IMG/VR virus record: IMGVR_UViG_2731957752_000002
Coordinates: 24,025 to 88,024 of that record
Source: a virus
Lineage: Duplodnaviria; Caudoviricetes
Strand: one strand, 5' to 3'
Length of the DNA: 64,000 nucleotides
The stretch's first letter is position 1. Each line of letters begins with the position of its first letter. Below, one piece after another: positions 24,562-25,947 of this stretch. The position numbers were made by a program, and so were the translations under genes. Under the pieces are notes generated by a model. It saw only the letters and a program-made list of their open reading frames with translations, searched no databases and was not told the DNA's origin.

Positions 24562-25947
24562 GTGGGTAAGCAGTCCCGTGTCGATACCGTCGCCAACCTC
24601 GCAAAACGTCGAGGAATCGTCTACCAATGCGGCGAAATCTATGGCGGCACCAAGTCGGCATGGGACTACGGTCCGCTCGGCGTCGAGCTGAAGGAGAACA
24701 TCAAGCGGCAGTGGTGGCGGTCCATGGTCACCGGCCGCGAAGATGTCGTCGGCTTGGACTCGTCGGTGATCCTGCCGCGCCAGGTGTGGCATGCATCCGG
24801 CCACGTCGAGACGTTCTCTGACCCGCTGGTGGAGTCGCTACACACCCACAAGCGATACAGGGCCGATCACCTGCTGGAGGCGTACGAAGCCAAGCACGGG
24901 CACCCGCCGGCCAACGGTCTCGCCGACATCCGTGACCCTGAGACGGGGCAGCCTGGCGCGTGGACGGAGCCGCGGAACTTCTCCGGCCTGCTCAAGACCT
25001 TCCTCGGTCCGGTGGATGACGAAGAAGGCTTGCACTATCTCCGCCCGGAGACGGCGCAGGGCATCTTCGTCAACTACAAGAACGTCGAGACCACCGCGCG
25101 CAAGAAGCCGCCGTTCGGCATCGCCCAGATCGGCAAGAGCTTCCGCAACGAGATCACGCCGGGCAACTTCATCTTCCGCACCCGCGAGTTCGAGCAGATG
25201 GAGATGGAGTTCTTCGTCAAGCCGGGCGAGGACGAGCAGTGGCACCAGTACTGGATCGACACCCGCATGGCCTGGTACACCGAACTGGGTATCGACCCGG
25301 AGAATCTGCGACTGTTCGAGCATCCGAAGGACAAGCTGTCGCATTATTCGACGCGGACTGTGGACATCGAGTACCGGTTCGGGTTCCAGGGCAGCGAGTG
25401 GGGTGAGTTGGAAGGTGTCGCCAACCGCACTGACTTCGACCTGAAGACGCATTCGGAGCACTCGGGTACCGAACTCAGCTACTTCGACCAGGCCACCAAC
25501 GAGCGCTACATCCCGTACGTCATCGAGCCCGCGGCCGGTCTGACTCGTTCGCTGATGGCGTTCCTGGTGGACGCGTACACGGAGGATGAGGCGCCGAACG
25601 CGAAGGGTGTGATGGAGTCGCGGACCGTGCTGCGCCTGGACCACAGGCTTGCGCCGGTGAAGGTGGCGGTGCTGCCGCTGTCCCGTAACGCTGATCTGAC
25701 TCCGAAGGCGAAGGATCTCGCGGCCCAGCTGCGGAAGCACTGGAATGTGGAGTTTGATGATGCGGGTGGTGTCGGTCGTCGTTACCGCCGTCAGGATGAG
25801 ATCGGTACACCGTTCTGTGTGACGGTCGATTTCGATTCGCTGGACGATCAGGCGGTGACCATCCGGGAGCGGGACTCGATGGCGCAGGAGCGTGTCGGGT
25901 TGGACCAGGTGGAAGCGTATTTGGCGACGCGGCTGCTGGGCTGCTGA
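24562..25947 (+). CDS. glyQS: Glycine--tRNA ligase (alpha2, class II)
   Basis: [69 protein letters not shown] before GTG. Confidence 0.97.

Follow-up and report, generated by a model that had tools for sequence, protein, structure and literature searches.

The 64,000-nucleotide (nt) stretch of DNA analysed here (hereafter the window; positions 24,025 to 88,024 of the IMG/VR record IMGVR_UViG_2731957752_000002) is the right-hand part of a 90.2-kb prophage integrated in the genome of a Nocardia, and it contains a complete glyQS gene coding for a glycyl-tRNA synthetase (GlyRS). This gene probably encodes a functional enzyme that was captured long ago from a Nocardia chromosome and has been kept under purifying selection, as a cargo gene, by a lineage of temperate Nocardia siphoviruses of about 90 kb.

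The glyQS gene occupies positions 24562-25947 of the window (plus strand) and encodes, from a GTG start to its stop codon, a full-length class II dimeric glycine--tRNA ligase of 461 amino acids (aa). A ribosome-binding GGAG is located 7 nt before the GTG, and the start at 24562 is therefore preferred over the TTG at 24514. The product matches the NCBIfam equivalog NF003211 with 666.5 bits (cut-off 312; residues 8-454 aligned to positions 2-454 of the 454 of the profile) and TIGR00389 (glyS_dimeric) with 475.5 bits (cut-off 243.3). The top solved structure is 8t5n (E 7.9e-259), with an alignment spanning residues 7-460. A set of 109 chromosomal actinobacterial GlyRS was used to define 162 invariant columns, of which the phage protein keeps 161, the sole change being I404V. 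In a leave-one-out control on the same 109 proteins, the median number of such changes was 0 and the maximum was 3. The class II catalytic core is intact, and motif 2 (FRNE...) is identical to that of 8t5n in the alignment. The C-terminal anticodon-binding domain is also present (precomputed match to PF03129; residues 353-454 match the ProRS, HisS and ThrS models). An earlier first-pass annotation of this DNA had reported an intact full-length GlyQS with the class II motifs and the anticodon-binding domain, and these matches bear it out. The nearest Nocardia chromosomal enzymes share 91-93% identity with the phage protein. All chromosomal Nocardia GlyRS start with VAPKSK, whereas the phage protein starts with VGKQSR and the proteins of all three phages described below deviate from the chromosomal N-terminus. 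Judged from its sequence, the window gene is a glycyl-tRNA synthetase with a predicted glycylation activity.

The host genome (G000) is a Nocardia genome of 7.69 Mb, distributed over 124 contigs, with a GC content of 68.4%. Its assignment to Nocardia follows from the names attached to its best database matches. The window corresponds to C17:50029-114028 and lies within an island of 63% GC. A perfect direct repeat of 29 bp is present at C17:23841-23869 and C17:114048-114076, at a distance of 90,207 bp. The corresponding site is empty in the congener G186, where the flanks adjoin each other with an overlap of precisely these 29 nt, and the same is observed in G257 and G116; in G189 and G052 both prophage flanks are found on one contig, with a weaker match. 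The repeat and the contiguous flanks of the congeners establish the element as one insertion of 90,207 bp (C17:23841-114076; -26187 to 64048 in window coordinates, that is, about 26.2 kb before the first base of the window and 48 bases past the last one). The GC content of the prophage is 0.60-0.65, against 0.684 genome-wide. The packaging, head, tail and lysis set is complete (terminase large subunit TerL, portal, coat, minor head, major tail, minor tail and Gp37-like proteins, LysB and LysA). Along the window, the early genes, namely those for the HIT-like ORF, Ro60/TROVE, cREC_REC, metallophosphoesterase, MazG, Dam and DUF6378, are followed by glyQS, two RNA genes and LysB, then by the packaging, head, tail and lysis genes and, finally, by the regulator and the integrase. 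The element, known here from its genes, is an integrated temperate tailed phage (siphovirus). The att repeat, the integrase, the empty sites and the neighbouring genes thus all agree with the first-pass annotation, which had placed glyQS inside a temperate phage, amid phage and RNA genes. The size then given, a "modest-sized" phage, has to be corrected, the prophage measuring 90.2 kb and the window showing its right 64 kb only. The possibility, raised at the same time, that glyQS lies between two separate elements does not agree with the one insertion and the single empty attB of G186, G257 and G116.

The recurrence of this gene was surveyed in 267 Nocardia genomes, one per species and including G000. 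A glyQS gene was found in 266 of them. Two full-length copies are present in eight genomes (G000, G006, G016, G056, G093, G110, G264 and G281), and the three matches of G009 are fragments on small contigs. The tally also counts G031, an unpublished genome on which none of the results depends. Relatives of the window TerL (31382-32692, plus strand; PF03237) with at least 63% identity are encoded by 16 of the 267 genomes, G000 included. A phage-linked glyQS is present in three of these 16 genomes, and the other 13 display a single glyQS match. In the three phages, glyQS is located upstream of the TerL gene on the same strand, at 5.4 kb in the window, 4.5 kb in G016 and 7.0 kb in G093, the TerL proteins of the two latter being 73% and 63% identical to that of the window. 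The ORF-by-ORF (open reading frame) comparison reveals synteny on both sides of glyQS in G016 and G093; the recurrence of the same arrangement in two other genomes does not fit an assembly chimera, which the first-pass annotation had also considered. In the G093 prophage (L120/L121, C2:2598000-2637999), the 40 kb that were read show no tape-measure or distal tail homologues beyond the tail-chaperone genes, and this prophage may be truncated or rearranged.

The region in which glyQS is inserted can be delimited by two anchors. On the left is a gene for a MazG-like nucleotide pyrophosphohydrolase (21668-22300, plus strand; phrog_671), homologues of which also precede the slot in G016, G159 and G126. 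On the right is a gene for a LysB-type cutinase/esterase (27844-28881, plus strand; PF01083, 27.2 bits), with homologues in all five related prophages examined. In G159, G126 and G065, the slot between MazG/early genes and LysB contains other small genes and 14, 3 and 1 tRNA genes, respectively. In G224, the contig stops 1.3 kb past the TerL gene, short of the slot. From these contents, the slot is a site of variable translation cargo of which glyQS is one occupant. The gene directly upstream of glyQS encodes a DUF6378 phage protein (23766-24449, plus strand; PF19905, 94.4 bits; phrog_474 and phrog_1167).

A DNA tree of 47 rows was obtained by a quick search without bootstraps, with supports from the Shimodaira-Hasegawa-like approximate likelihood ratio test (SH-aLRT). 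The phage glyQS of G000 and G016 are sisters (SH-aLRT 97) and fall within the Nocardia clade, where no particular chromosomal copy pairs with them. Over 1383 nt, the phage gene of the window differs at 182 positions from the copy of its own host and at 180 positions from that of G116. Relative to the nearest chromosomal genes, its synonymous divergence (dS) is 0.57-0.72 and its ratio of non-synonymous to synonymous divergence (dN/dS) is 0.077-0.091; dN/dS is 0.139 between the G000 and G016 phage copies and 0.09-0.35 in chromosome-to-chromosome pairs. The two phage copies have a GC content at third codon positions (GC3) of 0.83 and 0.81, whereas the nearest chromosomal glyQS reach about 0.95. 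The low dN/dS points to purifying selection on the phage gene and, together with a dS of 0.57 and the drift in GC3, excludes a recent neutral pick-up. The sister position of the G000 and G016 copies, the leader common to the G000 and G093 phages, the phage-like last 124 nt of the G093 copy, the deviating N-termini, the divergence and the selection point to a single ancient acquisition, after which the gene was inherited within the phage lineage. The source, as far as the sequences indicate, appears to be a Nocardia chromosome that donated the gene long ago and that is not traceable to the present host. Phylogeny and dN/dS had been proposed as checks by the first-pass annotation, and its statement that the gene was captured from the host is upheld for the Nocardia chromosomal source only: the grouping with the G016 phage copy (SH-aLRT 97), the nearly equal numbers of differences to the host and to G116 and the dS of about 0.57 contradict a recent capture traceable to the present host.

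One of the phage genes has also exchanged sequence with the allele of its host. In G093, the phage and host glyQS are identical at 1198 of 1199 nt between nt 60 and 1260. The first 60 nt of the phage gene differ from the host copy at 10 positions, and its last 124 nt match the phage copies at 95-101 positions and the chromosomal copies at 83-89 positions. Read from these alignments, the pattern is a gene conversion tract in the direction host to phage. The profile of G016 is patchier.

A second glyQS is present in G000 at C50:56975-58348 (L002:1495-2877), on the chromosome. The C17 copy is thus not the sole one, which answers a check suggested by the first-pass annotation. The C50 gene clusters with those of G116, G186 and G257 in the tree, and this clustering with the chromosomal copies of congeners identifies C50 as the orthologous chromosomal locus. 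Two changes affect its reading frame: a 1-nt deletion (GGCAAGAGC -> GGCAAAGC, at about nt 576 of the gene) and a 1-nt insertion (GAACTC -> GAATCTC, at about nt 723). These indels are 148 nt apart and compensate each other: the ORF stays open, and the 49 codons between them, those of motif 2 among them, are translated in the wrong frame. In the deduced protein, 25 invariant positions are lost, all of them within residues 193-231. The 83% identity between the phage and C50 proteins is lowered by this frameshifted segment. A class II synthetase lacking motif 2 cannot be active, and the C50 gene reads as catalytically dead in this assembly. A GlyRS of the glyQ type (PF02091) gave no match in G000, while the control genomes matched.

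Whether the C50 frameshifts belong to the genome or to its assembly was considered from several sides. The two indels are seen in this assembly only: the frame is intact in contigs of three related sequencing runs (X1 to X3), none of which is the run of the source strain; X1 displays 22 differences in 2908 nt. Besides the indels, the private changes of the C50 gene are 9 synonymous and 1 non-synonymous, and they give no sign of a long decay, so that any inactivation would be recent. Of 3353 long ORFs submitted to a GC-frame scan, 50 were flagged, and in our reading of their frame patterns the C50 glyQS is the only clean internal shift on the same strand. In 76 kb aligned to G186, we counted 30 gaps of lengths not divisible by three in called genes, mostly in a few variable clusters or as short compensated pairs; three are single gaps near called gene starts, with no sign of frequent indel errors. 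The overlaps at contig ends gave no hint of the assembler. The two indels fall inside and at the border of a stretch of 243 nt in which the phage and host copies show no other difference, and this argues against real frameshifts. On balance, a real mutation and a repeat-linked assembly or polishing error seem to us about equally probable. It is conceivable, although we lean slightly away from it, that the chromosomal gene has already been supplanted by the prophage copy, which would be the only working GlyRS of the cell, in which case the prophage could not be lost.

The phage glyQS is preceded by a leader (24490-24561, plus strand) that contains a -10-like TAGGGT, a C-rich block and the GGAG ribosome-binding site, and that differs from the conserved chromosomal leader. 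The leaders of the G000 and G093 phages are identical at 42 of 49 nt. They share an exact block of 22 nt that is found only in these two phages among all loci compared and in the whole G000 genome; this 22-mer has no copy in IMG/VR. A promoter function of the leader may be proposed from these features.

A tRNA-like gene is found about 220 nt after glyQS (26171-26241, plus strand; Rfam tRNA, 45.6 bits; called by ARAGORN as an odd "Ser(aga)"). Its anticodon arm is two nt short and has no standard anticodon. A tRNA or tRNA-like gene occurs at about the same offset in the G000, G016 and G093 phages, with a different identity in each: the shortened arm in G000, "Ile(aat)" in G016 and a 90-nt "Ala(tgc)" in G093, none with a Gly anticodon. 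The next RNA gene is a tRNA-Met (CAT) at 26588-26664 (plus strand; Rfam, 58.4 bits; also ARAGORN). It has a mismatch at 1:72 and three G:C pairs (GGG/CCC) at the foot of the anticodon stem, features that we take to be initiator-like. A tRNA-Met is present in all six related prophage loci scanned, that of the window included. As the first-pass annotation had stated, no tRNA-Gly was found in the window, where ARAGORN reports 3 RNA genes, and the remaining 26 kb of the prophage, on the left, have none either (0 genes). A minus-strand ORF (26690-27874, 394 aa) that separates the tRNA genes from LysB has a GC3 of 0.68 and represents a candidate gene; it has no match in Pfam or PHROG, and weak homologues are found at the same place in G093 as fragments that are 34-38% identical.

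These observations can be assembled into the following scenario. A lineage of temperate Nocardia siphoviruses of about 90 kb would have taken glyQS from a Nocardia chromosome long ago and would have kept it in the variable translation slot, which extends from the MazG side to the LysB/TerL side, alongside phage tRNA genes. Transcription of the gene may start in the conserved leader that it possesses. The phage GlyRS would charge the tRNA-Gly of the host, no phage tRNA-Gly having been found, and would represent a supply for the phage and the lysogen that is independent of the host gene. This supply could serve as extra capacity, or as an insurance when the glycyl-tRNA charging of the host is shut down or attacked. 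In this lysogen, the prophage glyQS may even be the only working GlyRS, the C50 copy reading as dead.

Several points weigh against this interpretation. With three of the 16 related prophages keeping glyQS, the phage lineage, taken overall, can do without the gene. The host glyQS of G016 and G093, both among the 109 chromosomal sequences, are intact, and replacement of the host gene is thus not the general outcome. A role in infection or in lysogeny is deduced from sequence data. The glycine content of the prophage proteins (7.7%, against 8.7% for the host genes) argues against a simple glycine demand, and a supply for "Gly-rich tail proteins", suggested by the first-pass annotation, finds no support in the same figures. 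Regarding expression, the G016 leader resembles the two other phage leaders only loosely (26 of 49 nt), and a consensus scan of the plus strand from 23600 to 27900 detected no promoter-like or terminator-like site. A structured leader was considered and rejected, the RNAalifold value obtained with 3 sequences (-4.8 kcal/mol) being too weak to claim one. No isolated phage has a TerL with more than 54% identity, a peptide-pattern scan of IMG/VR detected no relative of the phage GlyRS, and its allele is a singleton in a collection of 5.8 billion protein clusters.

Other explanations were weighed against an old capture maintained as translation cargo. A narrower form of it is that the phage GlyRS is a counter-defence keeping tRNA-Gly charged when this tRNA or the host GlyRS is attacked, and acting with the phage tRNA genes and with genes of RNA-repair type (Ro60/TROVE, cREC and phosphoesterase). 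In a preprint (bioRxiv 10.1101/2024.07.05.602228), the toxSAS protein FaRel2 is described as blocking the charging of tRNA-Gly and tRNA-Thr, prophage toxSAS systems as anti-phage defences, and phage-encoded tRNAs as a countermeasure against tRNA-targeting defences. Such precedents for tRNA-Gly-blocking toxins and for phage countermeasures favour a counter-defence, as do the position of glyQS in a tRNA slot and the presence of TROVE, cREC_REC and metallophosphoesterase genes in the same prophage. However, an extra GlyRS alone would not repair a modified CCA end, and the 161 of 162 invariant positions and the 91-93% identity to housekeeping enzymes bear no mark of an escape variant. No toxSAS or other system targeting GlyRS or tRNA-Gly turned up in the genome, although none was searched for. 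We consider this narrower explanation plausible but rather unlikely; the bypass of toxins targeting the synthetase or tRNA-Gly, put forward by the first-pass annotation, is conceivable as well. A non-canonical role, namely the synthesis of Ap4A with the phage HIT protein as the first-pass annotation had proposed, or the charging of the tRNA-like RNA at 26171, has still less in its favour and seems very improbable: a HIT-domain ORF does exist in the prophage (8880-9383, plus strand; PF01230, 33.8 bits, at C17:59124-59354, that is 9096-9326 of the window; phrog_3962), but it is 15 kb away among unrelated genes and nothing links it to glyQS. In each of the three phages an RNA gene follows glyQS at a similar offset, but this gene differs from one phage to the other and never has a Gly anticodon, and the conservation of the enzyme is that of a standard housekeeping GlyRS.

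Second copies of aminoacyl-tRNA synthetases (aaRS) serve as resistance genes in antibiotic producers and in resistant strains, a well-established situation. The phage gene could accordingly confer antibiotic resistance by lysogenic conversion, a second GlyRS shielding the lysogen from a natural GlyRS inhibitor. An article that treats giant viruses as a reservoir of resistance genes (PMC11364636) mentions tRNA synthetases 16 times. Divergent second glyQS genes linked to biosynthetic gene clusters (BGC) exist in five other Nocardia species, but they belong to a different clade (77-79% identity to the phage GlyRS) and to a non-phage context. The phage GlyRS, found in a phage context, is not clearly diverged and thus lacks the traits of BGC or resistance paralogues: it is only about 8% diverged from the housekeeping enzymes, its invariant positions are intact, and its gene, located in the tRNA slot, has the same orientation as the phage genes around it. 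Resistance is in our opinion improbable, though slightly less so than the non-canonical role. The explanation with the smallest probability, which we judge negligible, is that glyQS is a host housekeeping gene on an island between two elements, the product of an assembly chimera or a recent unselected pick-up. Taken alone, the defective reading of the C50 copy could suggest that the C17 copy is "the" host gene; yet the 90.2 kb between the att repeats are one insertion absent from five congeners, the orthologous chromosomal locus is that of C50, the same arrangement exists in two other genomes, and the dS of 0.57, the GC3 drift and the low dN/dS do not fit a recent pick-up.

The remaining genes of the prophage complete the picture of a temperate siphovirus, and those given here with window coordinates are on the plus strand. 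In the lysogeny region, a tyrosine integrase is encoded at 62639-64000 (PF00589, 38.4 bits); the window ends with its stop codon, and the attR core starts 20 nt further on. An XRE-family regulator (HTH_31 and DUF5753 domains) is encoded at 60990-61883. The structural and lysis genes comprise those for the portal protein (34217-35824; PF05133, 53.9 bits), the major capsid protein of P22-coat type (37696-38613; PF11651, 137.9 bits), the major tail protein (40409-41353; phrog_476) and the endolysin LysA (51389-52450; phrog_2998, 398 bits). An ORF at 42498-47579 presumably encodes the tape measure protein, as deduced from its length (1693 aa) and position, and is 51% identical to a homologue of 1763 aa at the same position in G016. 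A ReqiPepy6 Gp37-like tail protein (48518-50695; PF14594, 309 bits) contains an intein (PF14890 Intein_splicing, 48.2 bits, residues 419-537); this interrupted tail gene encodes 725 aa, against 560 aa for the homologue in G016. The genes upstream of glyQS include a Dam-type N6-adenine methyltransferase (22572-23084; PF05869, 48.4 bits) and a match to phrog_14583. The left arm of the prophage, outside the window, carries replication genes (YqaJ exonuclease and DnaB-like helicase) and a C5 methylase.

A Ro60/TROVE-domain protein is encoded at 15508-17385 (PF05731, 67.8 bits), with homologues in the G016 and G126 prophages. Immediately upstream of this gene, ARAGORN detects a "tRNA-Pro(tgg)" at 15360-15435, a tRNA-like element that is a candidate Y-RNA tRNA-like module; Rfam gave no match at E<=1 on positions 15150-15560. 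A comparable ARAGORN call is found upstream of the TROVE gene in the G016 prophage (L118:1931-3906). Just downstream of the TROVE gene are genes for a cREC_REC (cyclic-phosphate processing receiver) domain protein (18748-19074; PF20274, 85.4 bits) and for a calcineurin-like metallophosphoesterase (19578-20390; PF00149, 41.6 bits). The TROVE gene and the tRNA-like element resemble a phage Ro60 with its Y-RNA tRNA-like module, of a type described in bacteria and phages (PMC4201824). Past attR (C17:114077-120000), the GC content is low (about 0.65) for about 6 kb, up to a tRNA-Leu at C17:117469-117555, and the match to G186 breaks in this region between positions 1826 and 2868 of L129; a small second island or a remnant may be present there.

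The BGC-linked second glyQS copies are found at L132-L136 (G056:C125, G264:C259, G110:C19, G006:C5 and G281:C40). A PhyH dioxygenase gene and a TrmO-like gene are near the second glyQS in four of the five loci, and radical-SAM/PqqD genes in three (G006, G110 and G281). These loci look like a cluster of the RiPP type (ribosomally synthesized and post-translationally modified peptides) with its own GlyRS. The loci of G056 and G264 encode identical proteins in nearly all of their ORFs. Like the phage gene, each of these copies adds a full-length GlyRS to the one already present in its Nocardia genome; unlike it, they form a different clade and are accompanied by radical SAM/PqqD, TrmO-like and PhyH genes and by no phage genes.

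Compared with the housekeeping glyQS of Nocardia and other Mycobacteriales (solved relatives 8t5n, 8u2q and 8sld), the phage GlyRS has the same length, domains and invariant residues. It differs by its location in a prophage and not at the chromosomal locus, by its private leader and N-terminus and by a GC3 of 0.83 versus 0.95. The aaRS of giant viruses and of huge or jumbo phages are carried by genomes of more than 200 kb that are mostly lytic. Like them, the phage GlyRS is virus-encoded, cell-derived and found beside viral tRNA genes. Unlike them, its carrier is an integrated temperate siphovirus of 90.2 kb that does not reach the size of about 200 kb, and the gene is very close to the enzyme of the host genus, with which it recombines. 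The phage tRNA arrays opposed to tRNA-targeting defences occupy the same genomic slot, the related prophages having 1-14 tRNA genes there, whereas the cargo is here a charging enzyme without an accompanying tRNA-Gly. Horizontal replacement of aaRS genes has been inferred from phylogenies. Here likewise a foreign allele has joined the resident one, with allele exchange in G093 and a resident copy that is possibly decaying in G000; the difference is that the vehicle, a temperate phage, and the two-copy intermediate are directly visible.

The databases contain few comparable genes. Among 50,697 phage records, a full-length GlyRS match was found in only 4, which are unannotated records, at 48.5-50.5% identity, and a megablast search of the same records with positions 15300-40000 of the window gave no match. 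No report of a GlyRS encoded by a prophage or an actinophage was found in the literature, in a search without supplements and most subscription journals.

Virus-encoded aaRS are regarded as a distinctive trait of giant viruses and huge phages, and here one has been retained over a long period by a mid-sized temperate lineage. The benefit of an aaRS to an ordinary temperate phage becomes testable, phages with and without glyQS being available side by side (3 of 16). The same applies to the movement of aaRS genes, with a phage vehicle, a two-copy intermediate, a host-to-phage conversion and possibly the decay of a resident copy. If the prophage gene has indeed displaced its chromosomal counterpart, we would be observing the ongoing replacement of an essential aaRS by way of a temperate phage, and the gene conversion of G093 would mean that these same phages carry glyQS alleles from one Nocardia species to another. 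If the C50 frameshifts are real, the prophage would be indispensable to its host, an unusual route to prophage fixation.

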